DNA from: Acidimicrobiia bacterium
GTDB lineage: Bacteria > Actinomycetota > Acidimicrobiia > Spongiisociales > UBA11373
Assembly (NCBI GenBank): GCA_046714175.1
Contig: JBKKBI010000062.1
Span: 5,344 to 69,343, forward strand
Direction: 5' to 3'
Length of the DNA: 64,000 bases
The notes under the pieces: generated by a model
The model's database searches: none
What the model was told of the DNA's origin: nothing
The model's input: the letters and a program-made list of their open reading frames with translations, nothing else
Shown: piece after piece, positions 5,564 to 64,000 of the stretch
Layout: each line of letters begins with the position of its first letter
Position numbering within the stretch: the first letter of the stretch is position 1
Position numbers and translations under genes: made by a program

Positions 5564-5567
5564 TCTT

Positions 5568-24970: not shown

Positions 24971-24982
24971 GTCTCGTATCTC

Positions 24983-30999: not shown

Positions 31000-31143
31000 T
31001 GGCTTTCCCGACCCTACCGCGTCAGGGAAAGCCGAGTGGGCGATTGGCAGACAGCAGAAGGCGCCGACGCCATCTGCCACCTGCGATTTGCCGTCCCCCC
31101 GGGCGATGGGATATCGGACGACCGACCTCTACCCTCCGCACCC

Positions 31144-40784: not shown

Positions 40785-40786
40785 GC

Positions 40787-40832
40787 CCACTACCCGCTAC
40801 CCGCTACCCGGTACCCGTTGCCCGTCGCCCGC
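40787..40832. repeat. Tandem heptamer array (ctacccg-type) in the nuoD-nuoE junction
   Basis: ccactacccgctacccgctacccggtacccgttgcccgtcgcccgc. Confidence 0.6.
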
Positions 40833-40886
40833 AGAGCGCGGCGCCTATCGCCCACCGCCGATCGCTTCTCTGCAAAGGATCCCGCC

Positions 40887-41491: not shown

Positions 41492-41495
<4 letters not shown>
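40887..41495 (+). CDS. nuoE: NADH-quinone oxidoreductase subunit E
   Basis: YPEPRSAVMPLLFLAMRNDGG...CRSISCHLLGAD...CIGACGGAPAM. GTG at 40887 with an AAAGGA RBS is preferred. The alternative TTG at 40818 lies inside the heptamer repeat. Confidence 0.8.
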
Positions 41496-42770
<1,275 letters not shown>

Positions 42771-42778
<8 letters not shown>

Positions 42779-45200: not shown

Positions 45201-45279
45201 CCTCGGTGCATCGCCTCCCGGCTCCCGCTTCCCACCAGACCCGCAGGCGGCTCCTGGCTGTGGGCAGGAGCGCAGCGAC

Positions 45280-46383: not shown

Positions 46384-46387
46384 TGCG

Positions 46388-47068: not shown

Positions 47069-47582
47069 ACTGGTCCTCTTCATCATCTTCGCCCTTGCCG
47101 CCCTGTTCGGTGCGGTCACGATGGTGTGGGCGCGCAACCCGGTCTATTCGGCCATGGGGCTGATGCTCACGATGTTCTCCATCGCGGTTTTCTACGTGTC
47201 CAACGGCGCCCACTTCATCGCCGCGGTACAGGTGATCATCTATGCCGGCGCGGTGATGACCCTGTTCCTTTTCGTGATCATGCTCATCGGAGTCGACAAG
47301 GCGGAATCGCGCACCGAGAACCTGCCGCTGCAGCGGCCGCTGGCGCTGGGGCTGATGGCGTTGTTCGGAGCCGGAGTCGCCATCGCCGGCCGCTCCGCGT
47401 GGGTGACAGGACGGGCACCCGCCGGGGGCGCCCCGCCCGACGGCTCGATCGAGCAGGTGGGGTCCGAGCTGTTCAACAACTGGTTGCTTCCCTTCGAGGT
47501 GACCGCGCTCTTGTTGATTGTCGCCGCCACCGGCGCCATCGCGCTGGCCTTCTTCCGGGACGAAGACCGGGGGTTGTCGTGA
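47061..47582 (+). CDS. nuoJ: NADH-quinone oxidoreductase subunit J
   Basis: [36 protein letters not shown]. Confidence 0.85.
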
Positions 47583-47884
47583 CCGTAACTCCGGGCTGGT
47601 ACATGGCTCTGGCCGCGGTGCTCTTCGTCATCGGCGCTGGAGGCATGCTGCTGCGCCGTAACGCTCTGATCATGTTCATGTCGGTGGAGTTGATGCTGAA
47701 CGCAGTCAACCTCACGTTCGTCGCGGCGAGCCGCGAGCTCGGGGTGATCGACGGGCAGCTGGCGGTCCTCTTCGTCATGGTTGTGGCCGCCGCCGAGGTG
47801 GTTGTCGGTCTGGCGATCATCGTCGCCGTGTTCCGCCGCCGCCGCACCGCCAACGTCGACGAGCTGGCGGGGCTGAAGGGATGA
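47579..47884 (+). CDS. nuoK: NADH-quinone oxidoreductase subunit K
   Basis: [31 protein letters not shown]; GTG overlaps the nuoJ stop. Confidence 0.85.
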
Positions 47885-49746
47885 CGGAGATTCTGGTTTC
47901 GCTGGCCGTGCTACTGCCCCTCGGCGGTGCGGTGCTCATGGTGTTCTTCGGCAAGCGCCTCGGTGAGCCAGGGGCGGGCTACCTCGGAACCCTGACCGTC
48001 GCCGCCGCTTTCGGCGGGGCGGCGATCGCCGCCGCCGACTTCTTCACCGGTGGCGGGGAGACGGTGCTGGTGCGCTGGTTCGACTGGTTCCCCGCCTTCG
48101 GCGTCACCGCCGAACTGCGCTGGGATCCGCTCTCGGCGCTGATGACCCTTGTGGTCACCGGGGTGGGCGCGCTGATACATCTCTACTCGATTGGCTACAT
48201 GCACGGAGATCCCCGCTACGGACGGTTCTTCACCTACCTCAATCTGTTCGTCGCCTCGATGCTGATCCTGGTGCTGGCAAACAACTTCGCTGTTCTGTTC
48301 GTGGGATGGGAATTGGTCGGACTGTCGTCGTATCTGCTCATCTCCTTTTGGTTCGAGAAGGAGACCGCAGCCGCGGCGGGGAAGAAGGCGTTCGTCGTCA
48401 ACCGCATCGGCGACATCGGGTTCATCGTGGCCTTGATGCTGATCTTCGAGAACTTCGGCACCCTCCGCTTCGACGAGGTGCTGGAGGGGGCGCACGGTCT
48501 CGCCGCCGGTACCGCCACCGCCATCGGGCTATTGCTCTTGGTGGGCGCCGCCGGAAAGTCTGCGCAGCTACCCCTATACGTATGGCTCCCCGATGCGATG
48601 GAGGGCCCGACACCGGTCTCGGCCCTGATCCATGCCGCCACCATGGTCACTGCGGGCGTCTACCTGGTGGCGCGTACCGCGCCGATCTTTGCAGCCTCCG
48701 AGGTGGCGGGTGCCGTGGTGGCGATCGTCGGCACCGCCACCGCGCTGTTCGCCGCCACCATCGCCCTGGCGCAGAACGACATCAAGCGGGTACTCGCCTA
48801 CTCGACGATCTCCCAACTCGGGTTCATGTTCATGGCGGTGGGCGCCGCGGCCCATGTCGCCGGAGTGTTCCACCTGATGACCCACGCCTTCTTCAAGGCG
48901 TTGCTCTTCCTCGGCGCCGGGTCGGTGATCCACGGGATGCACGGTGAACAGGACATGGGCCGGATGGGCGGCCTGGCACGCAAGATGCCGCTCACGTTCC
49001 TGACCATGGCAGTGGGGTGGCTCGCAATCTCCGGGATCCCGCCCCTCGCCGGGTTCTGGTCGAAGGACGAGATCCTGGGCAGCGTGTACCAGCGGGGCGG
49101 CCTGTGGGTGGTCCTGTTCGGAGTCGGTCTGCTCACCGCAGCCCTGACTGCGTTCTACATGACCCGGATGATGTGGCTCACCTTCTTCGGAGCTCCGCGC
49201 TGGGCGGACGGACTGCATCCCCACGAGTCGCCCCTAATGATGACGCTGCCGCTCGTGGCGCTGGCCGGACTGTCGGTGGTCGGCGGTCTGGTGAACACGC
49301 CGTTCCGCACCGCCCTGGAGCATTTCCTCGACCCCGCTTTCGAGTTGGTTCATCTCAGCCATCCCCCGGAGGGGACTCTGGCCCTCACTCTGGCGGCCGC
49401 CTCCGTCGCCGCGGCGCTCGCCGGGATCGCCCTCGCCGCGGTGCGTTATCGCACCTACCGCACCGAGGCGGGGCGCACCTGGCGCATCCTGGGACGGGGC
49501 TACTACATCGACGATGTGTACGGCTCGGTGTTCGCCCGCACGGGCAAGCTCGGCGCGGCGTGGCTGGCCTTCCGCTTCGATGCCCGCATCATCGACGGCG
49601 CCGTCGAAGGCACCGGCGGCCTGGTCCGCCGCCTCGGCGGTTGGATGCGCCCCCTCCAGACCGGCTTCGTGAGGTCATACGGTTTGGCGATAGTTGCCGG
49701 AAGTGTGGCGATGCTGGCGTGGTTCCTGACGAGGGGGGCGCTGTGA
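47881..49746 (+). CDS. nuoL: NADH-quinone oxidoreductase subunit L
   Basis: 621 aa antiporter-like subunit; includes [29 protein letters not shown]. Confidence 0.9.
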
Positions 49747-49754
49747 TCACTCGC

Positions 49755-49783
49755 TGCCCGCCACCCGCCACCCGCTACCCGCA
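49755..49783. repeat. Heptamer array ctgcccg/ccacccg/ctacccg at the nuoL-nuoM junction
   Basis: ctgcccgccacccgccacccgctacccgc. Confidence 0.55.
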
Positions 49784-49857
49784 AGGGAGGGCCGGTGACC
49801 GCCTATCGCCCATCGCTCCTCTGGCAGCCATCGGGAGTCGTGTCTCGGGAGAACTCC

Positions 49858-51390
49858 ATGCCTGAGTTCCCGATTCTCTCCACCCTCATCCTGTTGCCGG
49901 TGATCGGCGCGGTGGTACTGCTCGCCATCCCTTCGCGTCGCGCCGAGGTCGTCATGCCTACGGCGGTGGCGGCTTCGCTGCTGACGCTGGGGGCGGCGCT
50001 GTGGATGCTGATCGAGTTCGAGAGCGGGGTGGCCGATTTTCAGTTCGTCGAGCAGTCGTCGTGGTATCAGCCATGGGGCGTGGGCTGGCACCTGGGCATC
50101 GACGGGATCTCGGTCTTTCTGGTGGTGCTGACCGCGTTTCTGTTCCCCATCTCCCTCGCCGCCAGCGGCGCGGTGAGGCACCGCGTGCGCGAGTACGCGG
50201 TCGCAATGTTGCTGCTCGAGGCCGGGATCATTGGGGTCTTCGTCTCCCTCGACCTGCTGGTCTTCTTCGTGTTCTGGGAAGTGATGCTGGTTCCGATGTA
50301 CTTCATCATTGGGATCTGGGGTGGCGAGCGCCGGGTGCACGCCGCGGTGAAGTTCTTCTTGTTCACCGCCTTTGGCTCGGCGGTGATGTTTGCCGGCATC
50401 CTGTTCCTCGGGTTCCTCGGCGGCGACGGTGCCCCCTCCTTCGACTTCGTCGATCTGCTCGGCGCCGAGCTGAGCCGCACTGCGCAGTTCTGGCTGTTCG
50501 GCGCGTTCGCTCTGTCGTTCGCCATCAAGGTGCCGGTATTCCCATTTCACACCTGGCTCCCCGACGCCCATGTCGAAGCCCCTACCGCGGGGTCGGTGAT
50601 CCTGGCCGGAGTGCTGCTGAAACTGGGCGCCTACGGATTGATCCGGTTCAACCTCACATTGTTCCCGGAGGCGGCGGTAGATCTGGTGCCGGTGCTGGCG
50701 GTGCTGGCGGTCATCGGCATCGTCTACGGCGCAATCGTCGCCATCGTGCAGAGCGACATCAAGCGCCTGGTGGCCTACTCATCGGTGAGTCACCTCGGGT
50801 TCGTCGTGCTCGGCATTTTCGCTCTCACCACCCAGGGGATGCAGGGCGGGGTTCTGCAGATGGTGAACCACGGTCTCACCACCGGGGCGCTATTCCTCCT
50901 GGTGGGGATGATCTACGAGCGGCGTCACACCCGGGAGATCGCGCAGTTCGGTGGGTTAGCCACCGTGATGCCCATCTACGCCGGGATCTTCCTCTTCACC
51001 GCCTTCGCTGCGATCGGTCTCCCCGGACTCAACGGTTTCGTCGGCGAGTTCTTCGTGCTGGTCGGGTCGTTCCTCTCGCTGCCCGTGTACGCCATCATCG
51101 CCTCCCTCGGCGTGGTCCTGGCAGCCGTGTATCTACTGTGGGCGTATCAGCGGATGTTCACGGGGCCGATCACCGTGGCGGAGAACTCCACGCTGCACGA
51201 CCTGCGCCCCGCAGAGATTCTGATCCTGGCCCCGATCATCGCCCTTGTGATCTTCCTCGGTGTCTACCCCAAGCCGGCGCTCGACCGCATCGCACCGTCG
51301 GTGGACGCGATCCTGGAGCGGATCGAAAACGTCACCGATTACGAGGTACCGGAGTGGGGGAGCACCAACGACGTGGCGGTGGAGGAATGA
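49858..51390 (+). CDS. nuoM: NADH-quinone oxidoreductase subunit M
   Basis: ATG at 49858 with a GGGAG RBS. Includes FHTWLPDAHVEAPTAGSVILAGVLLKLGAYG. Confidence 0.85.
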   Translation: MPEFPILSTLILLPVIGAVVLLAIPSRRAEVVMPTAVAASLLTLGAALWMLIEFESGVADFQFVEQSSWYQPWGVGWHLGIDGISVFLVVLTAFLFPISLAASGAVRHRVREYAVAMLLLEAGIIGVFVSLDLLVFFVFWEVMLVPMYFIIGIWGGERRVHAAVKFFLFTAFGSAVMFAGILFLGFLGGDGAPSFDFVDLLGAELSRTAQFWLFGAFALSFAIKVPVFPFHTWLPDAHVEAPTAGSVILAGVLLKLGAYGLIRFNLTLFPEAAVDLVPVLAVLAVIGIVYGAIVAIVQSDIKRLVAYSSVSHLGFVVLGIFALTTQGMQGGVLQMVNHGLTTGALFLLVGMIYERRHTREIAQFGGLATVMPIYAGIFLFTAFAAIGLPGLNGFVGEFFVLVGSFLSLPVYAIIASLGVVLAAVYLLWAYQRMFTGPITVAENSTLHDLRPAEILILAPIIALVIFLGVYPKPALDRIAPSVDAILERIENVTDYEVPEWGSTNDVAVEE

Positions 51391-51442
51391 GTCATCTGCC
51401 GTCAGTCGTCAGTCACAGCCTCCCCGCCGGTTCTGCCATCTG

Positions 51443-51488
51443 CCATCTGTCATCTGTCATCTGTGATCTGTCATCTACGACGCCGAAG
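51443..51488. repeat. Heptamer array catctgt/catctgc at the nuoM-nuoN junction
   Basis: ctgccatctgccatctgtcatctgtcatctgtgatctgtcatctacg. Confidence 0.6.
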
Positions 51489-51496
51489 GCGGCGAT

Positions 51497-52936
51497 GTGA
51501 CCAACGTCGACTTCCTCGCCATCGCCCCCGAGCTCATCCTCACCGTCGCGGTGGTGGCGCTGCTGCTTGTCGACGTGCAATGGCGTCCCGGGCCGCGGTG
51601 GTGGGGGATCGCCGCCGCCGCTGGACTGCTCGGAGCCACCGCGGCTGCGGTGGTGCACTGGATCGATCATCGGGGCGCCGACGCCGCCGGCTATTTCCAG
51701 GGGATGCTCGTAGTCGACGGCTTCTCCGCCGCCGCCGGGATCATCATCTTCACCATCACCGGCCTCGCCCTGGTGGTGGCGTGGCCGCTGGTGCGCACCC
51801 AGGGTGGGCGCGGCGCCGAGTTCGTCGTGCTGGTCCTGGTGGCGGCGACCGGCGCTCATCTCATGGCCGCGGCCGCCAACCTGGTGATGCTGTTCATCGC
51901 CCTCGAGGTGTTCTCGATCAGCCTCTACGTCCTCGCCGGCTTTACCCGGGAGCGTGCCGACTCCGACGAAGCGGCGCTCAAGTACTTCCTGCTGGGGGCA
52001 CTGGCCTCGGCGATATTCCTCTATGGGATCGCTCTCGTCTTCGCCGCCACCGGCACCACTTCGATCTACGGGGTCGGGGCATTCCTGGAGGGGACGCTGC
52101 TCTTTCGCCCCGGGATACTCCTCGCCGGTATCGCCCTGCTCGTCGTCGGACTCGGCTTCAAGGTCTCGGCGGCGCCGTTCCACGTGTGGTCGCCCGACGT
52201 GTATCAGGGCGCACCGGGTGGGATCACCGGGTTCCTCGCCGCAACGGCCAAGGTGGCTGGGTTCGCCGCCGCCGCCCGGGTGCTAACCGTAGCCCTCGAC
52301 GCCCGCATCGAGGATTGGGCACCGGCGGTGGCGGTCATCGCCGCGGCGTCGATAGTCGTCGGCACGCTGCTGGCGATCGCGCAGACCGATCTCAAGCGCA
52401 TGCTGGCGTATTCCAGCGTCGCCCACGCCGGGTTCATCCTCACCGCGCTCGTCGGCGGTACCGCCGGGATCGGGGAGATGTGGTTCTACGTCGCCACTTA
52501 TGCCGTGCAGGTGGTCGCCGCCTTCGGCGTCGCCGCGGTGGTGTCGGGGCCGCAACAGGGTCCGGCGCCACTGGCCGACTATGCCGGGCTGGCCACCCGG
52601 GCTCCGGGCTTGGCCACGGTGCTCGCCCTCATGATGCTGGCGATGGGAGGCATCCCGATCACCGCCGGGTTCGTCGGCAAGGCGGCGGTGTTCAGCGCCG
52701 CGCTCGAGGCGGACTACCTGTGGTTGGTCGTGCTGGCTCTTGTGGCCGCCGTGGCTGGCTTGTTCTTCTATCTGCGAGTCGTGGTGCTGATGTACATGCA
52801 GCCCGGCGACGCGGCGGCGATCAAGACTCCGGGCGGCACCCGACTGGTGCTACTCGGGAGCGCCGTATTCACGGTGGTCGCTGGTGTCGTGCCCTGGCCG
52901 CTGCTGCGGTGGTTAGGCGAGGCACTGCCGCTGTAA
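51497..52936 (+). CDS. nuoN: NADH-quinone oxidoreductase subunit N
   Basis: GTG start. 479 aa antiporter-like subunit; includes FHVWSPDVYQGAPGGITGFLA. Confidence 0.85.
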   Translation: MTNVDFLAIAPELILTVAVVALLLVDVQWRPGPRWWGIAAAAGLLGATAAAVVHWIDHRGADAAGYFQGMLVVDGFSAAAGIIIFTITGLALVVAWPLVRTQGGRGAEFVVLVLVAATGAHLMAAAANLVMLFIALEVFSISLYVLAGFTRERADSDEAALKYFLLGALASAIFLYGIALVFAATGTTSIYGVGAFLEGTLLFRPGILLAGIALLVVGLGFKVSAAPFHVWSPDVYQGAPGGITGFLAATAKVAGFAAAARVLTVALDARIEDWAPAVAVIAAASIVVGTLLAIAQTDLKRMLAYSSVAHAGFILTALVGGTAGIGEMWFYVATYAVQVVAAFGVAAVVSGPQQGPAPLADYAGLATRAPGLATVLALMMLAMGGIPITAGFVGKAAVFSAALEADYLWLVVLALVAAVAGLFFYLRVVVLMYMQPGDAAAIKTPGGTRLVLLGSAVFTVVAGVVPWPLLRWLGEALPL

Positions 52937-53141: not shown

Positions 53142-54251
53142 ATGCTCCGACCCGCCCGACTATTCGGCATCACGCTGGTCGCGGCGCTGGCTGCGCTCCC
53201 TCTGTTCTTGTCCAGCCTCCGTATCTCGGGGCGGGTGATCGTCACCGCCGAGGATGTCGTCACCGAGGATCTCTACGCCTTTGGTGATCGGGTCATCGTC
53301 GAAGGAGTCATCCAGGGCGATCTGTTCGTGGTCACCGGCCATCTCACCGTCACCGGCCGGGTGGAGGGCGATGTGATGGGGATGGTGGGGGGTCCTGCCC
53401 GTATCGATGGTGAGGTGACTGGGTCGGTGCGCCTCGCGGCCGTCGATCTGGTGATCACCGGTTCGGTTGGCGACGATGCGGCGCTGGTGACGGCAGAGAG
53501 CACCATCGAAGGTTCGGTGGGACGCGACGTTCTGGTCATCGCCGGATCGATCGCCCTCGATGGTTCCGTGGGGCGAGATGTACGCGCCCAGGCGATGCGG
53601 TTGTCGATCGACGGGCCCATCGCCCGCGATGTTCATGCCCGCACCGGACGCCTCGCTCTGGAGGACGAGGCTGTGGTCGGCGGCGATGTGCTCTACAAGG
53701 CATCCTCCGATGCCCGGGTGGATCCGGCTGCTGCTGTCAACGGCCGGCTCACCAGGCGCGACGTGATTGCCCCGGTGTGGGCCAAGGCCGTGTCTCGCCT
53801 CTTCCTCTTCTTCAGCACCGTCGGCTTCGTATTTGCCGGACTGGTGGCGGCATGGTTATTTCGCGGCTGGTCGGCTCGGGCGGTCACCGCGGCGGAGCGG
53901 CGGCCAGGCCGCTCGGCGGTGATCGGACTCGGCATCGTCTTATTGCCCCCGGTGCTGGTGCTGCCGCTGTTCCTCACCCTGGTCGGTATCCCACTGGCGC
54001 TGATGCTGCTGTTGGCCTGGTTGGGAGCGCTGTTCCTCGGCCCTCTACCCGCGGTGACGGCGGCCGGCAAGAGAATCGTGAAGGGCCGGGGTGGTTTCGC
54101 CGCGGCGCTGGTAGTGGGGACCCTGGTGTGGCGCGGGGCGATGTGGCTGCTGCCACTGATCGCGGTGCTGCTCTATCTGACTGCGCTGCTGATCGGGGTC
54201 GGCGCCTACGGCTCTGCAGCCTGGGAGTTGCGGCGGGAGAGCGCCCCCTGA
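53142..54251 (+). CDS. Membrane protein with bactofilin-like beta-helical repeats (signal peptide plus C-terminal TM bundle)
   Basis: Repeats GDLFVVTGHLTVTGRVEGDVMGMVGG / GSVRLAAVDLVITGSVGDD / GSVGRDVLVIAGSIALDGSVGRDV, followed by 4 TM helices. Confidence 0.35.
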   Translation: MLRPARLFGITLVAALAALPLFLSSLRISGRVIVTAEDVVTEDLYAFGDRVIVEGVIQGDLFVVTGHLTVTGRVEGDVMGMVGGPARIDGEVTGSVRLAAVDLVITGSVGDDAALVTAESTIEGSVGRDVLVIAGSIALDGSVGRDVRAQAMRLSIDGPIARDVHARTGRLALEDEAVVGGDVLYKASSDARVDPAAAVNGRLTRRDVIAPVWAKAVSRLFLFFSTVGFVFAGLVAAWLFRGWSARAVTAAERRPGRSAVIGLGIVLLPPVLVLPLFLTLVGIPLALMLLLAWLGALFLGPLPAVTAAGKRIVKGRGGFAAALVVGTLVWRGAMWLLPLIAVLLYLTALLIGVGAYGSAAWELRRESAP

Positions 54252-54396
54252 CCCTGTTTACAAACCAGGCCAACGGTAGGGTGACTGTGGATCATTCTCC
54301 CAGTGGGAGTGGCCGTGGGACACAGGGGTGTTCCACCAACCAGGGCACCGGCAGTAGCCGGATTGGGCCCGTGAGGCTCCGAATTCAGGAGCCGGG

Positions 54397-54684
54397 ATGG
54401 AGTTAGTGATGCAGAGATCTTCTTATATGGGCCTATTGGTATTCGGAGTCGTTCTCGCCGTGGTCGGCGCAATCATGAAGTTCGCCGTCACGGTGACCAC
54501 CGAGGGGTTCAACATCAACACGGCCGGGACGATCATGCTGGTCGTCGGCATCCTCGCCGCCCTTGTTGGACTCGGCCTGGCCCTCATGGGTCGGACCACT
54601 CGCAGCACCACCACCGAGCGCGTCCTCGACACGCCCACCGGTCAGGTCCGCACCCAGGAGACGAGAGCCAACCTGGAGGGCTAG
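54397..54684 (+). CDS. Small membrane protein (2 TM, hypothetical)
   Basis: 95 aa hydrophobic ORF. Confidence 0.3.
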   Translation: MELVMQRSSYMGLLVFGVVLAVVGAIMKFAVTVTTEGFNINTAGTIMLVVGILAALVGLGLALMGRTTRSTTTERVLDTPTGQVRTQETRANLEG

Positions 54685-54701
54685 AGGCAGCCTGAATTTG
54701 C

Positions 54702-54729
54702 GATGCGGCCGGTGGCAGTCCCACCGGCC
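54702..54729. terminator. Bidirectional hairpin gcggccggtgg-cagtc-ccaccggccgc
   Basis: Perfect 11-bp stem between convergent genes. Confidence 0.45.
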
Positions 54730-54742
54730 GCATTGTTAGCGC

Positions 54743-55756
54743 CTAGTGGCTTCCCAACACCACAACCTCACCGATCTCATAGCGCACCCGGTCTCCGGTG
54801 TGGAAGATGGGGTGCGGTCCGTTGCGTGCCAATAGCCTGCGCCCGTCGGCAACGTGCAGGGTGACCAGCTGATCGTGCCCGTAGTACTCGTGATCCACCA
54901 CTAGTGCTGGTCCGCCGGAGTCGGCGGTGATGCGCACCTGCTCGGGACGCACCAGTACCTCGGCGCGTTCGCCATCGGGGGCATCGGTGGGGAAGCGTCC
55001 CAACGGAGTATCGACTATCCCCGCCCGAACGGTTCCTTCGACAAAGGCACCCTCGCCGAGGAACTGTGCCACCCAGCGGTCGACGGGGCGCCGGTACAGA
55101 TCATGGGGCGAAGCCGTCTGGATCACCCGCCCCTCTCGCATCACCGCCAACACATCGCTTATCGCCAGCGCCTCCGACTGATCGTGGGTGACGAACACCG
55201 TGGTGGTGCGCGCCTCCACCAGGATGCCGCGCACTTCGCGGCGGATCTTTTCGCGCTGGGGGGCGTCGAGGTTGGAGAAGGGTTCATCGAGCAGGATCAC
55301 CGCAGGTGCGGGCGCCAGCGCCCGTGCCAAGGCGACCCGTTGCTGCTCGCCCCCGGATAACTCGTGAGGGAGGCGTTGCTCCATCCCGGTAAGCCCCACC
55401 ATGTCGAGGACTTCGGTGATGCGGCGTCGCACACCCCTGGGGAGCCCGTACCCGACGTTCTCGCCCACGGTCATGTGCGGGAAAAGCGCAAAGTCCTGAA
55501 AGACCATCCCGACCCGGCGTCGCTCCGGGGGCACGAAGGTGGTGTCATCGACCACAGTGACCCCATCCACTGCCACCGACCCTGAGTCGGGGCGTTCGAA
55601 TCCGGCGATGAGGCGCAGCGCCGTCGTCTTCCCCGAACCGGAGGGACCGAGCAGACCGAGCACCCGGCCGGTGGGAGCTGTGAGGGAGAAACCGTCCAGG
55701 ATCGGCTTCTCGGCAAAACGCTTCACCAGCCCGTGGCACACGATGGCGTCGGTCAT
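54743..55756 (-). CDS. ABC transporter ATP-binding protein (Fe3+/polyamine-type, FbpC-like)
   Basis: GPSGSGKTT Walker A; LSGGEQQRVALARAL; C-terminal TOBE-like domain. Internal ATG chosen (MTDAIVCHGL). Confidence 0.8.
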   Translation of the reverse strand: MTDAIVCHGLVKRFAEKPILDGFSLTAPTGRVLGLLGPSGSGKTTALRLIAGFERPDSGSVAVDGVTVVDDTTFVPPERRRVGMVFQDFALFPHMTVGENVGYGLPRGVRRRITEVLDMVGLTGMEQRLPHELSGGEQQRVALARALAPAPAVILLDEPFSNLDAPQREKIRREVRGILVEARTTTVFVTHDQSEALAISDVLAVMREGRVIQTASPHDLYRRPVDRWVAQFLGEGAFVEGTVRAGIVDTPLGRFPTDAPDGERAEVLVRPEQVRITADSGGPALVVDHEYYGHDQLVTLHVADGRRLLARNGPHPIFHTGDRVRYEIGEVVVLGSH

Positions 55757-57357
55757 GTCTCCCGCCTCGTGAGCAGGTAGGTGGGGATGGCGGCCACGAG
55801 GAGCAAAAGTATCGCCGGGATCGCCGCCCGGGAGTACAACAACGAGTCGGCGGCGGCCCACACATCCACGGCGAGGGTCTCGAACCCCGTGGGCCGGAGC
55901 AGCAGCGTCGCCGGCAACTCCTTCAACGTGGTGAGGAATACGAGCAAGGCCCCGGTCACCAGCCCGGGACGGACGATTGGGGCGGTGATGCGCAACATGG
56001 TGCGTCCCGGTCCGGCGCCCAGCGAGCGTGAGGCTTCCTCGATGGAGGGACTCACCTGGAGCACCGCGGCGCGCACCGGTCCCAAAGCCTGGGCGAAGAA
56101 CACCGCGGCGTACACCGCCACCAGCACCACGAGGCTCTGGTACAGGCCGCCCAGGTAACGGGAGGCGAAGAAGACCATCGCCAAACCCACGGTGATGTGG
56201 GGGAGGGCGAAGACCGTGTACGCGGCACGCTCCACCCAGCGCGTGGTGCGCGACGGGTGGCGGGCGAGGAGCACCGCGGTGGGGAGTGCCAGCACCGCTG
56301 CCAGCGCGGCCGCCAGGATCGCCGCGAGCAGCGAACCCCGCACCGCATCCCAGGGAATCACCCGGCCCGCCGACGCGCCCCGAACCGCCCACGACGCCAG
56401 CACGCCGGCAGGGGCGACGAGCGCGATGGTGGCGAGCAGGCCGAGGGAGAGGCTCCCCAGGATCCGTCCCCGGCGTCGCAGCGCCACGGGGCGGGGCATG
56501 CGCCGAACCGGGCGTCCGTGATACCCGGCGCGGCCTCGGGTGCGCCACTCCGCCCACACCACGACCAGGGCCAGCAGCACCAGCAGTAATGCCAGTACCG
56601 CGGCCGGGGTTCGATCCAGCCGTCCGGAGTACTGGGCGTAGACCATGCGGCTGAACGAGTCGAACCGAACCAGCGATACCGCCCCAAAGTCGGACAGTGT
56701 GTAGAGCGCCACCACCAGCAGGCTGGCGCCCAGGGCGGGTCGCAATTGCGGCAACACGATGGTGCGGAAGGTGCGCCCCGGGCCGGCGCCGAGTCCCCGC
56801 GCCGCCTCCTCGTGGGCAGGGTCTAGGCGGCGCCACGCCGCCGCCGCGGCGAGGAACACGTATGGGTAGGCGGCGATGGTGAGCGTCAGCCATGCCGCCG
56901 GCAGCCCGGAGACCACCGGGATGGTGAAACCTGTGAGGTCGGAGAGATAGCCGCGGGGACCGGCGGCGGCGAGCAGCGCCAGCGCGATCACGTAGGAAGG
57001 CATGACCAGGGGAAGCGCCACTACCACCCGCCACCCGCGCCTGCCCGGGAGATCGGTCGCCTCGGTGAGCCAGGCAGCGCCGATCCCGACCGCCGCGGTG
57101 GTGCACGCCACCAGGCTGACCAGGACGGCTGTGTTGAGAACGAGCCGGCCGGTTTGCGGGGAGAACACCACGTCGCTGATCGTCGAACTCGAGGCCAGCA
57201 CCCGACCGATGAGGTTGGCGAAAGGCACCAGCGCGGGGAGCAGCGCCAACGCCGGAGCCACCCACAGCCAGCGCGGCGCCCGGGACCGTCGCCGCGCCGC
57301 CGGCACCTCGTCGGACGGTGTCGGGGCCAGTGGCGGTGCGACCGCGCTCACGGTCAC
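55753..57357 (-). CDS. ABC transporter permease, duplicated (FbpB-like iron(III) permease)
   Basis: Two permease halves. GTG start overlaps the binding-protein stop. Confidence 0.75.
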   Translation of the reverse strand: MTVSAVAPPLAPTPSDEVPAARRRSRAPRWLWVAPALALLPALVPFANLIGRVLASSSTISDVVFSPQTGRLVLNTAVLVSLVACTTAAVGIGAAWLTEATDLPGRRGWRVVVALPLVMPSYVIALALLAAAGPRGYLSDLTGFTIPVVSGLPAAWLTLTIAAYPYVFLAAAAAWRRLDPAHEEAARGLGAGPGRTFRTIVLPQLRPALGASLLVVALYTLSDFGAVSLVRFDSFSRMVYAQYSGRLDRTPAAVLALLLVLLALVVVWAEWRTRGRAGYHGRPVRRMPRPVALRRRGRILGSLSLGLLATIALVAPAGVLASWAVRGASAGRVIPWDAVRGSLLAAILAAALAAVLALPTAVLLARHPSRTTRWVERAAYTVFALPHITVGLAMVFFASRYLGGLYQSLVVLVAVYAAVFFAQALGPVRAAVLQVSPSIEEASRSLGAGPGRTMLRITAPIVRPGLVTGALLVFLTTLKELPATLLLRPTGFETLAVDVWAAADSLLYSRAAIPAILLLLVAAIPTYLLTRRET

Positions 57358-58352
57358 AGGAGTCCGGAGGCGGAGACCAAGTCGGTGGCGAGGTCCAGCA
57401 CCGTCGCCAGATCGGAGAGATCGACCTCGGGCTGAGCCAGATCGTCGAGGGCGGGAAGGCCCGCCGGAGCATTCAGTCCAGTGAGGAGCGGGTACTCGAA
57501 GGTCTCTTCTGCGAAGTAGCGCTGCGACTCCTCGGCGAGCAGAAACTCGACGAAGCGTGTCGCCGCGTCGCCGGCGTCGCTGGTGGCGAGGATCCCCACC
57601 CCGGCGGGCATCACCAACGACGCCGCGCTCGCGGTCGTAAAGAAGTGGTTGGCGGCGGTCGTCTCCCCCTGATCGGCGATCAAGCCGAGCAGGTAGTAGT
57701 GGTTTACCAGACCCACCTCGACTGTTCCCTGGTCGACGGCGGCGACGATGGGTGCGTTGCCGGAGAAGATCTGGGGATCGTTGGCGGCGATGGCCTCGAG
57801 CCAGTTGCGGGTGCGGCCCTCGCCGCGTTCCAGGATCATCGCGGCGACGAAGGCGAGGAACGAGGCGTTGGAGGGTGCGATGCCGATCCGACCCCGCCAC
57901 ACCGGATCCATGAACCCGTCGACGTCGGTGGGGAGGTCTGCCGCGGACAGCTTGGTGGAGTCGTAGACCACGACCCGGCTGCGCCCGCTAACTCCGACCC
58001 AGAGGCGATCACGGTCGGAGAAGCGTGCCGGGACCAACTCGAGGATCGACTCAGGAAGAGGGGCGAAGAGGCCGGCTTCGGCCACGGCGCCGAGTGACGC
58101 CGGATCCTGAGCGAAGAAGACGTCGGCCGGACTGTTGGCTCCCTCCTCGCGCAGGGTGGCAGCCAGGTCGGTGCTGGAGGCGTAGCGCGCCTCGACCGTG
58201 ATCCCCGTCTCCGCCGCGAAGCGCGCGATCAGCGGAGCCACCAGCTCCTCCGAGCGACCTACGTAGACGGTGATGCTCTCGGGGGCATCGTCACCGCAGG
58301 CGGTGGTGGCGAGCAGCAGGGCGATTGTGGCGAGAAGCAGTCGGCGGGGCAT
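57354..58352 (-). CDS. ABC transporter periplasmic substrate-binding lipoprotein (iron(III)-type)
   Basis: MPRRLLLATIALLLATTACGDD lipobox; FbpA/AfuA-like fold. Confidence 0.75.
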   Translation of the reverse strand: MPRRLLLATIALLLATTACGDDAPESITVYVGRSEELVAPLIARFAAETGITVEARYASSTDLAATLREEGANSPADVFFAQDPASLGAVAEAGLFAPLPESILELVPARFSDRDRLWVGVSGRSRVVVYDSTKLSAADLPTDVDGFMDPVWRGRIGIAPSNASFLAFVAAMILERGEGRTRNWLEAIAANDPQIFSGNAPIVAAVDQGTVEVGLVNHYYLLGLIADQGETTAANHFFTTASAASLVMPAGVGILATSDAGDAATRFVEFLLAEESQRYFAEETFEYPLLTGLNAPAGLPALDDLAQPEVDLSDLATVLDLATDLVSASGLL

Positions 58353-58534
58353 TTTGGCCAGGCCTCCGGTGATGTTCAGGTCGACCCCGCTATGGAGCCG
58401 AGATTTGTTATGGCGAGCCTGAACACTATTCCGGGCGGACAGTGATGGCAAAACTCGACCCGAAATGTCAGCGAGACCGGCGTGGTCTTGCCGGATGACA
58501 CCAACCTCCGGAGGGGCGCACCCGGCGCTAACCG

Positions 58535-59635
58535 TCAGCTGCGTCCTACCAAAAGGGGGATTCGGACCTCCTCCGGGGTGAGACCGCCGTGCTGGCCGAT
58601 GAGCCGTTCGTCGGCGTGCTTGTGGAACACCACCCAGCCCGGCCGCGGCAAGAGGATGCCGTCAGGAGCCCGTCCGGCGAAGCCGGGGTGCGGGGTACCG
58701 GGTCCCCACCAATGCGCCATGGTCTCTCGGAGCGCGAAGTCGACGCCGAGTTCGGCGGCGAGAGACTCCACTTCTCCGTAAACGAACGGAGCCCGGGGGT
58801 CGCCGCCAAAGTCCCGCTCGTCGTGGTCCTTCTTGGGGATGTTGATGCGACGGTCTTCGGGGACGTCGACGTGGCCGTGGTCGGCGGTGCCCACCGCGAT
58901 GGCATGCGCCGGCAGGCGGCGCACCATTCGCTCCCACATCCGGGATGCGAGGGTGATCGCCTCGGTGTAGTCGTCGCTTGCCTGACCGGAGACATGAGCG
59001 GCGAAGTCGACATGGGGGAGGTAGAAGAAGACGAGCCTCCCCGGCACCCGGGTCAGCTCGGCGGCGATGTCCGCCGCCTCATCCTCGTCGTCCCACGCCT
59101 CGAACCGGCAACCCCGGTACAGCATCCGGCTCATCGGGGAGTCGTCGAAGTTCCATGGTTGCAGGGTCACCGGTTCGATCCCATGGGAGGCGAGGCGCTC
59201 CCAAAGGTTGGGCATGGGGAGGAAGCCCCAGAGGTCGTGGTCGATGGGCTCACCCCACTGCGTGGTCCACTTGATCGTGTTGACCACGTGGCCGGTCTCG
59301 GGAACTCGCAGCTGGTAGCCGAGCAGCCCGTGCTCGATGGGGGTCATGCCAGTGGCGATGGTCGCCATGCTCACCGTCGTCGTGGTCGGCCAGCCGGAGG
59401 TGACGGAGCCAACCCGAGCCGCCGCCAGCGGAGCCGCTGCCGTATGCGCCAGCTGATGATCGCCCAGACCATCGAACAACATCAAGACATAGGACTCGGC
59501 TGCGGGGATCGCCGCGGCCAGGTCGGAGTGCAGACCCGGATGCCGCGCGGTTCCCGTCAGGCGCCGCTCCAACTCTGCGACCAGGTTGACGAGCGAGCCG
59601 CCGGAGTAGTCGGGCAACAGGAAGTCATTAGTCAT
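58535..59635 (-). CDS. Alkaline-phosphatase-superfamily metalloenzyme (type I phosphodiesterase / nucleotide pyrophosphatase-like)
   Basis: MLFDGLGDHQLAH...TTTVSMATIATGMTPIEHGLLGY...GTADHGHVDV. Confidence 0.6.
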   Translation of the reverse strand: MTNDFLLPDYSGGSLVNLVAELERRLTGTARHPGLHSDLAAAIPAAESYVLMLFDGLGDHQLAHTAAAPLAAARVGSVTSGWPTTTTVSMATIATGMTPIEHGLLGYQLRVPETGHVVNTIKWTTQWGEPIDHDLWGFLPMPNLWERLASHGIEPVTLQPWNFDDSPMSRMLYRGCRFEAWDDEDEAADIAAELTRVPGRLVFFYLPHVDFAAHVSGQASDDYTEAITLASRMWERMVRRLPAHAIAVGTADHGHVDVPEDRRINIPKKDHDERDFGGDPRAPFVYGEVESLAAELGVDFALRETMAHWWGPGTPHPGFAGRAPDGILLPRPGWVVFHKHADERLIGQHGGLTPEEVRIPLLVGRS

Positions 59636-59758
59636 GAGTCGTGGTTCTCGAGCCAGGGGCGCATCAGCGGAGAGGGTACGGCTCGGGCTGGCGGCTGGTG
59701 GCAAGGCCCTGGTTCCCCCTTCCTATACTCCCGCCGGACATCGGCCCCGGGGAAGGCA

Positions 59759-60127
59759 GTGACCGACTACTTCCAGGACTACATCACCGTGGCGGTGTTC
59801 GCCGGTGCCGGCATATTCCTGGTGGCCATCGCCCTGGGAGCCAGCGCCCTGCTCCGTCCCCACAAGCCCTCGGTGGTCAAGCGCCAGTCGTACGAGTGCG
59901 GGATCAACCCCGTCGGCGACGGGTGGAGCCAAACCCAGGTGCGCTACTACATCTTTGCGCTGCTTTTCCTCATCTTCGACGTCGAGGCGGTGTTCATCTT
60001 CCCCTGGGCGGTGCAGCTGGAAAGCCTGGGAGCGTTCGCGCTGGTGGAAATGGCGATCTTCATCGTCATCCTTCTTGGTGGCCTCGTATACGCGGTACGC
60101 AAGGGGGTGCTGCGGTGGGAGTCCTAG
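59759..60127 (+). CDS. nuoA: NuoA-like subunit of the second complex-I-type operon
   Basis: [10 protein letters not shown]...[12 protein letters not shown]. Confidence 0.8.
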
Positions 60128-60612
60128 ACCGCTTCGAGACTCCCAAACCCATCTCCTGGCTTCTCAACTGGAGCCGCAAGTACTCGCTCTGGATGTTCCA
60201 GTTCGGGCTGGCCTGTTGTGCCATCGAGTTGATGGCGGCCTCGGGACCCCGCTACGACTTCATGCGGTTCGGGATCATTCCCTTGCCGGCCTCCCCGCGC
60301 CAGGCTGACCTGATGATCGTGGCCGGCACCGTCACCGACAAGATGGCCCCGGCAATCCGGCGCCTCTATGACCAGATGCCCGAGCCCAAGTACGTGATCT
60401 CGATGGGGTCGTGTTCCAACTGCGGTGGGCCGTACTGGGACTCGTATAGCGTCACCAAGGGCGTTGATCAGGTGATCCCGGTCGACGTGTACGTCCCCGG
60501 CTGCCCGCCCCGACCCGAGGCGTTGATGGACGGCATCGTCCTCTTGCAAAAGAAGATTCAGGCGGAGAACATCAAGGCCAAGTGGAACGAGCGTGACCGT
60601 GAACCCGTCTGA
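60115..60612 (+). CDS. nuoB: NuoB-like subunit (second operon)
   Basis: [11 protein letters not shown]...[15 protein letters not shown]...VPGCPP. Confidence 0.85.
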
Positions 60613-61174
60613 GGTTGCGGCACGTTTCGCCGGGATGGTGGGGGCGACCCGCCACTCTGCAGACTTTGAAACCGCCAAGGTCTACGTCACCCGGGATCAG
60701 TGGGTCGAGGCGCATCGCACGCTGCAGCAGCAACTCCCCTACTTCTCCTGGCTCGGCGCCATCGACTGGGCCAACGAGCGCGCGGTGGGGGAGGCCCCCG
60801 AGGAGCCGGTTACTGAGCGTTACGAGGTGCTCACCCGCCTCGGCGACGTGACCGTGGGGACCGCGGTGATGATCTCCACCGACTTGCCCAAGGACGATCC
60901 CCGGCTGCCGTCGTTGATCGGTATCTACCCCGGGGCGAATTGGCATGAGCGCGAGTCGGCCGAAATGTTCGGAATCGTCTTCGAAGGTCATCCCAATACC
61001 GCGCATCTCTATCTCCCCGACGGGTTCGAGGGGCATCCGCTCCGCAAAACCTTTCCCCTATTGAGTCGGGACGTCAAGCCATGGCCGGGGCTGGTGGATG
61101 TGGAAGGCATGCCCGGGGAGGCCAACGTGGAAGCGGGCGACGCCGCCCCTGGGGAAGAGGAGGCGGAGTCATGA
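60593..61174 (+). CDS. nuoC: NuoC-like subunit (second operon)
   Basis: [38 protein letters not shown]. Confidence 0.8.
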
Positions 61175-62361
61175 CCGATCGCCGCCTCGCCGCCATCCAC
61201 GCCAGCGAGGTTTCGGTGTCGGTGGAGTTGGAGACCCCCGACATGACCCTCAACCTGGGACCGCAGCATCCGTCGACACACGGGGTGCTCCGCTTGGTGG
61301 CCAAGGTCGATGGCGAGGTCATCCAGTCGGTGGAGCCGGTGATCGGGTACATGCACCGCGGCTACGAGAAGCTCGCCGAGGTACGCACCTATCCGCAGAT
61401 CACCGCCCTGGTGAATCGCATCGACTGGGTGTCAGGCTTCGCCAATGAGATTCCGTTCATTGTGGCGGTAGAGCGCCTCATGGGCATCGAACCCCCGCCG
61501 CGGGCGCAGTACATCCGTCTCATTCTGACCGAGATGGCGCGGATCTCATCCCACCTCGTGTTTCTTTCCTCCTACCCCCTCGAGTTGGGCGCGGCCACAC
61601 CGCTGATGCACGCACTCCGGGAACGGGAGCGGGTGCTCGACCTAATCGAGGGTGTCACCGGCGGCCGGTTCCATCCCAACTTCAATCGGATCGGCGGGGT
61701 CAAGCCCGCCGCCGGCGCTGGCTCGACCCAGAAGAAGGTGACCCAGGACCTTCCCGCCGGTTTCCTCGCCGACACGCGCAAGGCGATGGATGCGGTGGAT
61801 GCGGTGTGCGACGACATGGTGAATCTGGTCCTGGGCAATGAGATCTTCGTCCAACGCACCCGTGGGGTGGGGATCATGCCCAAAGACCGGGCATTGGCTT
61901 TCGGCGTTTCCGGACCCAACCTGCGCGCCTCGGCGGTGCGCTTCGACCTGCGCAAGACCGACCACTACCTGCCCTATGGCGACTTCGAGTTCGACATCCC
62001 CACCGGAGTCAACGGGGACTGCTTCGACCGCTATCAGGTGCGTCTCGAGGAGATCCGCCAGGCCACCCGCATCGTTCGCCAGGCGATCGACGGGCTGCCG
62101 GGAGGGGAACTGCAGGCCAAGGTTCCCCGGATCATCAAAGTCCCCAAGGGCGAGCTCTACGTTCGGGCGGAGAACCCGAAGGGCGAGATGGGCTACTTCG
62201 TGGTGTCGGAGGGCGGTCGCGGCCCGTATCGGCTCAAGATCCGTTCCGCGTCGTTCTCCAATCTCTCGGTTCTCCCCTGGCTGTTGGCGGGCCAGCTGAT
62301 CCCGGACATCATCGCCATCCTCGGCAGCCTGGACTTCGTGCTCGGGGACGTGGACCGATGA
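61171..62361 (+). CDS. nuoD: NuoD-like subunit (second operon)
   Basis: MTLNLGPQHPSTHGVLRL. Confidence 0.85.
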   Translation: MTDRRLAAIHASEVSVSVELETPDMTLNLGPQHPSTHGVLRLVAKVDGEVIQSVEPVIGYMHRGYEKLAEVRTYPQITALVNRIDWVSGFANEIPFIVAVERLMGIEPPPRAQYIRLILTEMARISSHLVFLSSYPLELGAATPLMHALRERERVLDLIEGVTGGRFHPNFNRIGGVKPAAGAGSTQKKVTQDLPAGFLADTRKAMDAVDAVCDDMVNLVLGNEIFVQRTRGVGIMPKDRALAFGVSGPNLRASAVRFDLRKTDHYLPYGDFEFDIPTGVNGDCFDRYQVRLEEIRQATRIVRQAIDGLPGGELQAKVPRIIKVPKGELYVRAENPKGEMGYFVVSEGGRGPYRLKIRSASFSNLSVLPWLLAGQLIPDIIAILGSLDFVLGDVDR

Positions 62362-63383
62362 GCGCGCTCCTCGACAACTTCTGGGTGCTTCTCGGCCTCA
62401 AGGTCCTGGTGATCGCGGCGGTGGTCCCCCTGGTCTCCCTGGTGTTCATCTTCGCCGAGCTGAAGATCTCGGCTCACATGCAGAGCCGCATCGGCCCCTA
62501 CTTTGCGGGTGGCCGCTTCGGCTGGGCGCAGCCGCTCGCCGACGGTCTCAAGTTCATGCAGAAGGAAGACCTGATGCCGGCCGACGCCGATGCTCCGGTC
62601 TTCAAGTTCGCTCCCATGATCGTTCTGATGTCCACCATTGCGGTGTTTGTGATCGTGCCGTTCAGTCCGAGGTTGATCGTGCGCGATCTCGATCTTGGGG
62701 TCTTCTACGCCCTTGCCATCGGCTCCTTTGGCACCATCGGCGTGCTGATGGCGGGCTGGTCGTCGGCCAACAAGTACTCGTTGATGGGCGGGTTGCGCGC
62801 CGCCGCCCAGTTGATCGCCTACGAGTTGCCGCTCGTGCTGGCGGTGGTGGGTGTCGTGATCCAGGCGGGGACCATGTCCCTGAACGGGATCGTGGCTGCC
62901 CAGGCCGAGCCGGTGTTCATGCTGGGCGACTTCGCCGTACGGCTGCCCTACCTGATGCAGGGCCAGGTGATCGGTTTTGCCATCTTCATCATCGCCATGC
63001 TCGCCGAGTTGAACCGGACGCCATTCGACATGCCGATCGCCGAGTCGGAGCTGGTGATGGGGTATCTCACCGAGTACTCGGGCCTGCGCTTCACCATGTT
63101 CTTCCTCGCCGAGTACGCCGGGATGTTCTCCATGTCGGCCATCGCCGCCACCTTGTTCTTGGGCGGCTGGTACATGCCCGGTCTCTCCCTGGACCTCCTC
63201 GAGTTCGTCGGCCCATTGATTCTCATGGGCAAGGTGTCGCTTCTGGTGTTCGTCATCATCTGGATCCGGTGGACCTTCCCCCGTCTGCGTGAGGACCAGC
63301 TGCAATCGCTGGCGTGGCGGTGGCTGATTCCGCTTGCCCTGCTCAATATCGTCGGAACCGCAGTCGTAAAGGTGGTCCTGTGA
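62358..63383 (+). CDS. nuoH: NuoH-like subunit (second operon), immediately after nuoD with no nuoEFG
   Basis: [31 protein letters not shown]...[20 protein letters not shown]. Confidence 0.85.
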
Positions 63384-63850
63384 TGGCGCCGAAGCTCCCC
63401 GGAGTCGGTCTCGCCAAGGGTCTGTGGCTGACGTTGCGGACCCTGTTCACCCGCCCGGCCACGATCAACTACCCGAAGGAGAAAGAGGTGCTGGTGCCGC
63501 GGGCCCGCGGTGTCATCGCCCTCGATGTCGAAGCGTGCACGGTGTGCATGCTGTGCGCCCGCGAGTGTCCCGACTGGTGCATCTACATCGAAGGACACAA
63601 AGAGATGCAGCCCCCGTCGAAGCCGGGCGGCAAGCCGCGCAGTCGGGCGACCCTCGATCGCTTCGACATCGACTACGCCCTCTGCATGTATTGCGGTATC
63701 TGTGTCGAGGTGTGCCCGTTCGACGCTCTGTTCTGGTCTCCCGATTACGAGTACTCCGAGGGTTCCATCTCGAGCCTGCTCCACGACAAGGAGCGGCTCA
63801 CCGATTGGCTTGCCACCGTGCCCAAGCCCCCGGCCCTGGAGAGCCAGTGA
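63383..63850 (+). CDS. nuoI: NuoI-like subunit (second operon)
   Basis: [16 protein letters not shown]...[16 protein letters not shown]. Confidence 0.85.
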
Positions 63851-64000
63851 TGCAATTCACCGACTGGATCGCCGATGCCCGCAACGTCGTGTTCCTCGTG
63901 ATCGCGTTGGCGATGGTGGGGGCAGCGGTGCTGGTAGTGACCAGTCGCAATGTCGTGCACGCCGCACTGATGCTGGTGGTGGCGCTGGCCGGGTCGGCGG
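63850..64000 (+). CDS. nuoJ: NuoJ-like subunit (second operon), partial at the window end
   Basis: [44 protein letters not shown]... Confidence 0.7.
   Translation, partial: MQFTDWIADARNVVFLVIALAMVGAAVLVVTSRNVVHAALMLVVALAGSA

Follow-up and report, generated by a model that had tools for sequence, protein, structure and literature searches.

A second complex I operon without nuoEFG in an Acidimicrobiia bacterium: a probable 11-subunit enzyme with tryptophan at a quinone-ligand position

Why would a bacterium that encodes a full respiratory complex I also carry a second set of nuo genes from which the NADH-oxidizing subunits are missing, and what would feed electrons into its product? This question is raised by a 64,000-nt stretch of Acidimicrobiia DNA (here called the window), which has a guanine plus cytosine (GC) content of ~66% and holds a complete nuoA1–nuoN1 operon (operon 1, set 1) and, in its last segment (59759–64000, plus strand), the beginning of another (operon 2, set 2). 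An earlier, sequence-only reading had described this segment as a complex I-like operon that lacks the NADH-oxidizing module (N-module) and draws on ferredoxin, reduced coenzyme F420 (F420H2), or another donor. We assigned the open reading frames (ORFs) of the window, whose closest relatives are metagenome-assembled genomes (MAGs) of uncultured Acidimicrobiia, to families using Pfam and NCBIfam profile searches (Table 1). Our analysis indicates that operon 2 almost certainly encodes an intact complex I of the 11-subunit, N-module-less type (NUO11).

The profile searches identified nuoA2, B2, C2, D2, H2, and I2 and the start of nuoJ2, with no nuoE, F, or G among them and no extra ORFs within the operon. 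All of the reading frames are intact and translationally coupled, the junctions from A2–B2 through I2–J2 overlapping by 13, 20, 4, 4, 1, and 1 nt. Because nuoD2 runs directly into nuoH2 through a 4-nt ATGA overlap, no gene can fit between them. The description of a second operon without nuoEFG, with nuoD passing straight into nuoH and tight gene junctions, was therefore accurate, as was that of the complete 14-gene operon, in which Pfam recognized E, F, and G.

Does this layout hold beyond the end of the window? Identical NuoD2 and NuoH2 proteins are listed for an NCBI contig of 77,666 bp. A Logan contig of 3,845 bp (L001), 100% identical to the window over 3,279 nt and reaching 566 nt further, supplied the full 172-aa NuoJ2 (PF00499) and then the first 67 aa of NuoK2; for the remainder of K2–N2 in the source organism, we relied on relatives. 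A scan with one genome per species yielded at least 538 loci with NuoH2 relatives, and 80 of these were kept, nearly all from Acidimicrobiia MAGs, with NuoH2 identities of 64–92%; ORFs were called in each kept locus and compared against both nuo sets of the window. Wherever the contig reaches, the gene order in these 80 loci is A2-B2-C2-D2-H2-I2-J2-K2-L2-M2-N2, and in L004 (89% NuoH2 identity) the 11 genes are contiguous over ~10.1 kb. A second actinobacterial lineage has the identical 11 Pfam families in the same order. The downstream extension to nuoKLMN that had been suggested as a check thus succeeded on L001 for J2 and the start of K2, and L2, M2, and N2 were seen in orthologous loci only (89–92% NuoH identity and beyond).

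Similarly, tblastn searches with NuoE1, NuoF1, and NuoG1 at an E-value of 1e-3 found no match in 82 loci, and blastp found no E, F, or G in the relatives' loci, so that none lies within ~10 kb of operon 2. The subunit lengths are all standard, so none of the subunits is a fusion with E, F, or G. The nuoEFG homologues that the sequence-only reading had named as the observation to count against it, inside or beyond operon 2, appeared in no relative. The 11 core genes therefore form one cluster (A–I and the start of J in the window, the rest through L001 and relatives), and this cluster has no N-module of its own (E, F, and G), as a 14-subunit enzyme (Nuo14) would.

Is the encoded machine functional? 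The ratio of nonsynonymous to synonymous substitution rates (dN/dS) between the window and three relatives was 0.03–0.25 for nuoA2–nuoI2, indicating strong purifying selection, and between relatives dN was similarly low relative to dS for nuoJ2–nuoN2. The most divergent subunit was NuoC2 (0.16–0.23). When aligned to solved PSST/Nqo6, NuoB2 retained all four Cys ligands of cluster N2, its GCPP motif being present in 63 of 63 orthologues and its CC motif, matched by a strict regular expression, in 56 of 63; both CxxCxxCxxxCP motifs of NuoI2 were found in 78 of 78. In the closest complete relative, L004, both membrane Glu residues of NuoK2 are also retained, and NuoL2 (E161, K246, K362, and K417), NuoM2 (E148, K246, K277, and E419), and NuoN2 (E141, K226, K256, and K406) hold the canonical Glu of transmembrane helix (TM) 5, Lys of TM7, Lys of TM8/11, and Lys/Glu of TM12. 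NuoD2 has two Cys only, with none in the N- or C-terminal NiFe ligand motifs (its N-terminus contains GPQHPSTHG and its C-terminus LGDVDR), and its match to NiFeSe_Hases was below the cut-off; without the NiFe cysteine pairs, it is not a hydrogenase. Operon 2 is thus an intact machine under selection, comprising the quinone and proton-pumping modules (Q- and P-modules), and not a decaying duplicate. Separately, we observed that NuoB2 has an extra Cys three residues past the third N2 ligand (GSCSNCGG compared with GSCANGGG in mitochondria), which is present in 57 of 63 orthologues.

How are the two sets related? NuoA2, B2, C2, D2, H2, and I2 are 34, 59, 32, 40, 42, and 32% identical to their set 1 counterparts, and identities of only 32–59% point to an ancient split that has been maintained. 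This agrees with the earlier description of divergent paralogues, for which the NuoB motifs GACASTGG (set 1) and GSCSNCGG (set 2) had been quoted correctly. The best NCBIfam matches of NuoA2 and NuoD2 were to PRK07756 and PRK12322, which we take to be of the Bacillus type; both matches were below the equivalog cut-offs. Against the Mycobacterium smegmatis complex I (8e9g), NuoH1 and NuoD1 scored 323 and 397 bits, whereas NuoH2 and NuoD2 scored 212 and 251 bits. As judged by these scores, set 1 is the vertically inherited, mycobacterial-like complex I of actinobacteria. The nearest solved chains of NuoH2 were chloroplast and cyanobacterial NdhA, chloroplast NdhA being the best, and those of NuoD2 were Thermus thermophilus Nqo4 and then cyanobacterial NdhH. 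Relative to set 1, NuoH2 and NuoD2 scored higher against subunits of the ferredoxin-dependent NDH-1, and set 2 thus leans toward the NDH-1/NUO11 lineage, this being a lean in scores and not a resolved phylogeny. The pattern fits the early-branching NUO11 group of Degli Esposti, which contains Chlorobi, some Gram-positives, and NDH-1 (PMC4758237).

Two features of set 1 itself were also noted. NuoI1 (46337–47068) has a low-complexity C-terminal extension of ~80 residues without a counterpart in NuoI2, and the nuoD1 ORF as delimited (39351–40784) has ~90 residues N-terminal to the part that aligns with solved NuoD; the true NuoD1 start may be later.

Is the quinone site of the second enzyme that of an ordinary complex I? 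We aligned NuoD2 using HMMER with 2fug_4 (T. thermophilus Nqo4) and 6hum_H (cyanobacterial NdhH). In Nqo4 numbering, His38 (His37 here), Arg84, and His169 are retained, Asp139 is replaced by Glu138, and the quinone-ligand Tyr87 is replaced by Trp86, so of the canonical pair that holds the quinone head group (His38 and Tyr87) only the His is present. NuoD1 has the canonical Tyr and Asp. Both Trp86 and Glu138 were invariant in 73 of 73 Acidimicrobiia orthologues, and, as far as these alignments reach, Trp at the ligand position is a clade-wide trait. The complex I fold and the family membership of NuoD2 stand despite Trp86. A 13-residue insertion (Table 1) was present in every Acidimicrobiia orthologue displayed.

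The Trp extends beyond the Acidimicrobiia. It was found in 33 of the 150 nearest NuoD cluster representatives at 50% identity, and in a neighbour-joining tree of 116 full-length representatives at this identity, a rough guide that carries no support values, NuoD2 fell in a small all-Trp clade. Three homologue searches of wider relatives returned Trp in 353 of 358 proteins; most non-actinobacterial NuoD representatives, and NdhH, keep Tyr. Trp-type relatives occur in Ilumatobacteraceae and in Nocardioidaceae/Propionibacteriales, where nuoD lies apart from the other nuo genes and beside a gene for a PF02636 (NDUFAF7-like) methyltransferase. They also occur in an abundant lineage of actinobacteria, represented by 367 blocks in the contig collection, where PF02636 directly follows nuoABCDHIJKLMN. 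Of 45 Acidimicrobiia loci, 9 have PF02636 no more than 3.5 kb past nuoN2; the nearest relatives lack it there. In mitochondria, the Arg that precedes the quinone-ligand Tyr by three residues is dimethylated by NDUFAF7, and this Arg is conserved in NuoD2, as RIDW. We found no description of Trp-for-Tyr as a family feature in a limited literature search; Degli Esposti regarded the Y87W of piericidin-producing Streptomyces as rare (PMC4758237). An altered acceptor site is the one explanation that we can offer for Trp86.

Is a second, N-module-less operon new among actinobacteria? Complexes I of 11 subunits without EFG are widespread, and their presence in actinobacteria has been on record since 2011 (PMC3144371). 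In Ca. Actinomarinales, two nuo clusters, one of them without EFG, are found in one region with an Fe3+ ATP-binding cassette (ABC) transporter and a heliorhodopsin between them (PMC7771536; 10.1101/2021.02.01.429150). These bacteria belong to the same class and share with the window the order nuoABCDHIJKLMN without EFG, a full nuoA–N close by, and an ABC importer in between. The differences are the heliorhodopsin, whose position is taken here by an alkaline-phosphatase-family gene divergent from nuoA2; the NDUFAF7-like gene downstream, which is missing within 3.5 kb in the closest relatives of the window; and a GC content of ~32% compared with ~66% here. Since the window repeats the Actinomarinales block of nuoA–N, ABC importer, and 11-gene operon, the arrangement was already known, and operon 2 represents an ordinary case of an established enzyme type, not a new one.

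Other known systems resemble operon 2 in part. Streptomyces has a second set without an N-module, comprising nuoA2, B2, D2, and H2–N2 and expressed as an operon, beside a full nuoA–N (PMC3765725). This likeness is one of gene content. In the Streptomyces listing, nuoC2 is missing and nuoD2 stands apart, whereas the 11 genes are contiguous here. The NUO11 of Firmicutes (the Bacillus cereus group and Desulfitobacterium hafniense) is likewise encoded by an 11-gene operon without EFG, has a conserved Q-module, and is proposed to use ferredoxin (PMC3144371, PMC11238625), although Desulfitobacterium has no co-resident 14-subunit enzyme. The cyanobacterial and chloroplast NDH-1, a ferredoxin:plastoquinone oxidoreductase, shares the 11 core subunits and the lack of NuoEFG, and its NdhA and NdhH are the best and second-best solved matches of NuoH2 and NuoD2, respectively. 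In NDH-1, however, ferredoxin binding depends on NdhS/V/O and further subunits, the operons are split, and the quinone site retains Tyr. In the M. smegmatis complex I, the 11 core subunits have the same architecture, and the acceptor is presumably menaquinone as well; this enzyme corresponds to operon 1, whereas operon 2 is without E, F, and G.

What, then, would this enzyme do? Operon 2 most likely gives rise to a quinone reductase that is bound to the membrane and pumps protons, with Q- and P-modules but no N-module; the acceptor is presumed to be menaquinone. Electrons would be expected to enter at the 4Fe-4S pair of NuoI2 and to pass to cluster N2 in NuoB2, quinone would be reduced in the NuoD2/B2/H2 pocket, and this reduction would drive four antiporter-type proton channels. 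As no flavoprotein is encoded with operon 2, the donor must be encoded elsewhere. That ferredoxin or F420H2 would replace NADH is plausible. We tentatively favor, at somewhat less than even confidence, a reduced ferredoxin-type low-potential carrier. It would dock on NuoI2, which is what happens in photosynthetic NDH-1 and has been proposed for the Firmicute NUO11 enzymes. For the donor of bacterial NUO11 in general, ferredoxin is the favored working hypothesis (PMC11238625). With the firm structural part and the weaker donor part blended, a NUO11-type complex with a ferredoxin-type donor is the best overall explanation, and our confidence in it is about evenly balanced.

Several observations weigh against this explanation. 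In the window and in the 80 loci, no gene linked to the operon encodes a ferredoxin, a pyruvate or 2-oxoglutarate:ferredoxin oxidoreductase (PFOR/OGOR), or an NdhS/V/O-like protein. Nor does operon 2 have a conserved downstream neighbour: the clustering of ORFs within 4 kb of nuoN2 in ~60 loci gave none present in more than 15 loci, the recurrent ones being a GNAT acetyltransferase, LytR-family proteins, and unknowns; by function, PF02636 alone was suggestive. NuoI2, with an isoelectric point (pI) of 5.7, is not basic, so that an acidic ferredoxin would find no obvious surface on it for docking. Furthermore, the replacement of the quinone-ligand Tyr by Trp means that normal quinone chemistry is not assured; a complex I engineered from Tyr87 to Trp showed severely lowered decylubiquinone reduction and gained inhibitor resistance (cited in PMC4758237). 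Finally, a full NuoEFG is encoded ~15 kb upstream on the same strand, so that the N-module could be shared.

Could the second complex dock the NuoEFG of operon 1? It would then be an alternative Q/P chassis and a second NADH:quinone oxidoreductase isozyme, with a quinone site reworked, for example, for another quinone species or for insensitivity to natural quinone-site inhibitors. The two operons share a strand and are less than 7 kb apart. In four relatives, the end of operon 1 is found ~3 kb upstream of nuoA2 (L1-M1-N1 in L006, L012, and L033; N1 alone in L044), which indicates that the tandem layout is ancestral in this Acidimicrobiia group, and the same adjacency is seen in Ca. Actinomarinales (PMC7771536). 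The idea also has precedent in the literature, and the listing of Streptomyces nuo2 without nuoC2 (PMC3765725) implies some subunit sharing. In addition, the main conserved difference that we detected concerns the quinone site rather than the clusters of NuoI. On the other hand, the subunits that would touch NuoG are just 32–40% identical between the sets (C 32, I 32, and D 40%), the long C-terminal extension of NuoI1 is missing from NuoI2, the two sets come from different lineages, and hybrids between complex I clades are rare according to Spero et al. We therefore consider the sharing of the N-module unlikely, though far from negligible.

Somewhat more doubtful is a broader proposal, in which the Trp-type NuoD2 would mark a pan-actinobacterial complex I isoform with a deliberately rebuilt quinone pocket (Tyr87 to Trp, Asp139 to Glu/Gln), often accompanied by an NDUFAF7-like arginine methyltransferase. 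Such an isoform could reduce another acceptor or show intrinsic insensitivity to quinone-site inhibitors of natural origin, piericidins among them, and it might borrow the NuoEFG of operon 1. If this were true, Y87W in piericidin-producing Streptomyces would be a family trait and not a rare resistance adaptation.

Could operon 2 instead encode an F420H2 dehydrogenase, which would receive electrons from reduced coenzyme F420 through an FpoF/FrhB-type subunit encoded at a separate site? The Methanosarcina Fpo, an F420H2:methanophenazine oxidoreductase, is likewise a complex I core without NuoEFG, and many actinobacteria make coenzyme F420. Lopez-Perez et al. proposed this function for the Actinomarinales cluster on the basis of identities to the Fpo of M. 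mazei that reach 35% and of the presence of F420 biosynthesis (PMC7771536). Secondary NCBIfam matches to FpoD (329 bits) and FpoH (261 bits) were obtained here as well, but they are far under the cut-offs (600 and 475 bits) and under the Nuo matches of the same proteins, and the similarity to Fpo is generic, as shown by any complex I. Fpo uses FpoF and FpoO, whereas no FpoF/FpoO-like gene was present among the window ORFs scanned or as a conserved neighbour in the 80 loci; a gene for FpoF can, however, lie elsewhere in a genome. We consider an Fpo-like enzyme improbable, and some other donor accounts for what likelihood remains. The reading of operon 2 as a redundant, decaying duplicate without a distinct function, which the complete canonical complex I alongside and a Trp that would harm the canonical enzyme might invite, has next to no likelihood and is already effectively refuted by the intact, coupled frames, the low dN/dS, the conservation of all Fe-S ligands and pump residues, the old and maintained split from set 1, and the occurrence of the operon in at least 538 genome loci and thousands of metagenome proteins.

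The surroundings of operon 2 were also inspected. The phosphodiesterase-family gene upstream of nuoA2 (PF01663) is a conserved neighbour, found also in ~50 relatives' loci. A conserved plus-strand ORF just 5' of nuoA2 was rejected as a gene, being the antisense shadow of this phosphodiesterase-family gene, and promoter and terminator scans over 58400–64000 gave nothing above the shuffled expectation. Between the two nuo operons (53142–59704) lie a bactofilin-like gene, a small membrane ORF, the ABC importer, and the PF01663 gene. The importer consists of an ATPase with a TOBE domain in a 909-aa ORF and a substrate-binding protein, whose best matches were of the aminoethylphosphonate, ferric, and polyamine types, all below cut-off. 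Among the relatives, L066 has ~3.5 kb inserted between nuoK2 and nuoL2 (12336–15864), and L028 (1–5661) has, upstream of the operon and on the other strand, an extra partial cluster of antiporter-like, NuoH-like, and NuoA-like genes, which may be another complex I-related or Mrp/hydrogenase-type system.

The sequence-only reading had also found the co-occurrence of operon 2 with a ferredoxin-containing cytochrome island suggestive. This link is unsupported: the island (21.4–30 kb) lies ~33 kb away, nothing connects the two, and the Fer4 protein looks like a subunit of its own complex, most simply the Rieske/split cytochrome b membrane complex. Among actinobacterial bc complexes, a split cytochrome b accompanied by an additional Fer4 subunit is unusual. 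The island is adjoined by a gene for the redox-sensing repressor Rex, and no site for the Rex operator TTGTGAAnnnnTTCACAA was found anywhere in the window with up to 3 mismatches. Between the island and operon 1 sits an ORF for a MenJ-like flavoprotein, which reaches ~200 codons upstream of its domain and may bear on which menaquinone species both complex I enzymes see. The beginning of the window (1–12174) is unrelated and encodes a class II (B12-dependent) ribonucleotide reductase truncated by the start of the window, an amidase, and a DUF7282/GEVED surface protein, together with tyrosine-catabolism-type genes for a 4-hydroxyphenylpyruvate dioxygenase (HPPD)-like protein (7723–8937) and a fumarylacetoacetase (9856–11088).

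Table 1. Coordinates of the features discussed (window positions, except for the last row, which refers to relatives' loci).
Feature	Position	Strand	Description
nuoA2	59759–60127	+	122 aa, GTG start; Pfam PF00507 Oxidored_q4, E 1e-36; 34% identical to NuoA1
nuoB2	60115–60612	+	165 aa; Pfam PF01058 Oxidored_q6, E 9e-31; NCBIfam NuoB subfamily NF005012, 242 bits, above cut-off
nuoC2	60593–61174	+	193 aa, acidic C-terminal tail; Pfam PF00329 Complex1_30kDa, E 1e-31
nuoD2	61171–62361	+	396 aa, quinone-site subunit; Pfam PF00346 Complex1_49kDa, E 8e-82; NCBIfam NF004739, 421 bits (cut-off 360)
Trp86 codon (TGG) of nuoD2	61426–61428	+	Position of quinone-ligand Tyr87 of T. thermophilus Nqo4
13-residue insertion in NuoD2, PAAGAGSTQKKVT	61705–61743	+	After GGVK; absent from Nqo4, NdhH, and NuoD1
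nuoH2	62358–63383	+	341 aa; Pfam PF00146 NADHdh, E 4e-105; NCBIfam NF004741, 317 bits (cut-off 305)
nuoI2	63383–63850	+	155 aa; 2x[4Fe-4S] protein, NuoI subfamily E 4e-29; ATG start agrees with L001
nuoJ2	63850–64000	+	First 50 codons, cut by window end; weak NCBIfam NuoJ match, E 2e-6
nuoA1–nuoN1	37983–52936	+	Complete 14-gene operon (Pfam); sole NuoEFG source in window
nuoE1	40818–41495	+	
nuoF1	41492–42778	+	
nuoG1	42771–45200	+	
Type I phosphodiesterase/alkaline-phosphatase-family gene	58535–59704	-	Pfam PF01663; divergent from nuoA2
Rex redox-sensing repressor	20638–21420	+	NCBIfam NF003992, 300 bits, above cut-off; adjoins respiratory island
Respiratory island, minus-strand part	21935–27044	-	In order: unknown 255-aa protein, 149-aa 2x[4Fe-4S] protein, b6-type cytochrome b (261 aa), subunit-IV/PetD-like (230 aa), Rieske, 499-aa di-haem cytochrome c
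Rieske protein	in frame of ORF 23463–25532	-	
Fer4 dicluster protein	25827–26276	-	Inside Rieske/split cytochrome b/di-haem c operon
Respiratory island, plus-strand part	26996–29958	+	Divergent; fused CcoN-CcoO (COX1+FixO, 666 aa) and CcoP-like cytochrome c
Geranylgeranyl-reductase-family flavoprotein	30523–32376	+	Best match menaquinone reductase MenJ, 288 bits, below equivalog cut-off
PF02636 gene beside Trp-type nuoD2 or right after nuoN2	L082 8596–11203; L083/L084 8443–19986; L006 19572–20642		

What does operon 2 mean for these bacteria? The gene arrangement itself adds nothing new, as it has been catalogued across bacteria, in actinobacteria, and beside a 14-gene operon in another Acidimicrobiia order. 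The electron donor of bacterial NUO11 is, however, a question already recognized in the field, and it can reasonably be put to an organism that keeps both enzymes next to each other. As a by-product, our analysis indicates that an actinobacterial NUO11 lineage swaps the universally cited quinone-ligand Tyr for Trp in every orthologue checked. This Trp site, together with the NDUFAF7-like neighbour in some lineages, offers a testable way into the question of why both complex I enzymes have been kept.

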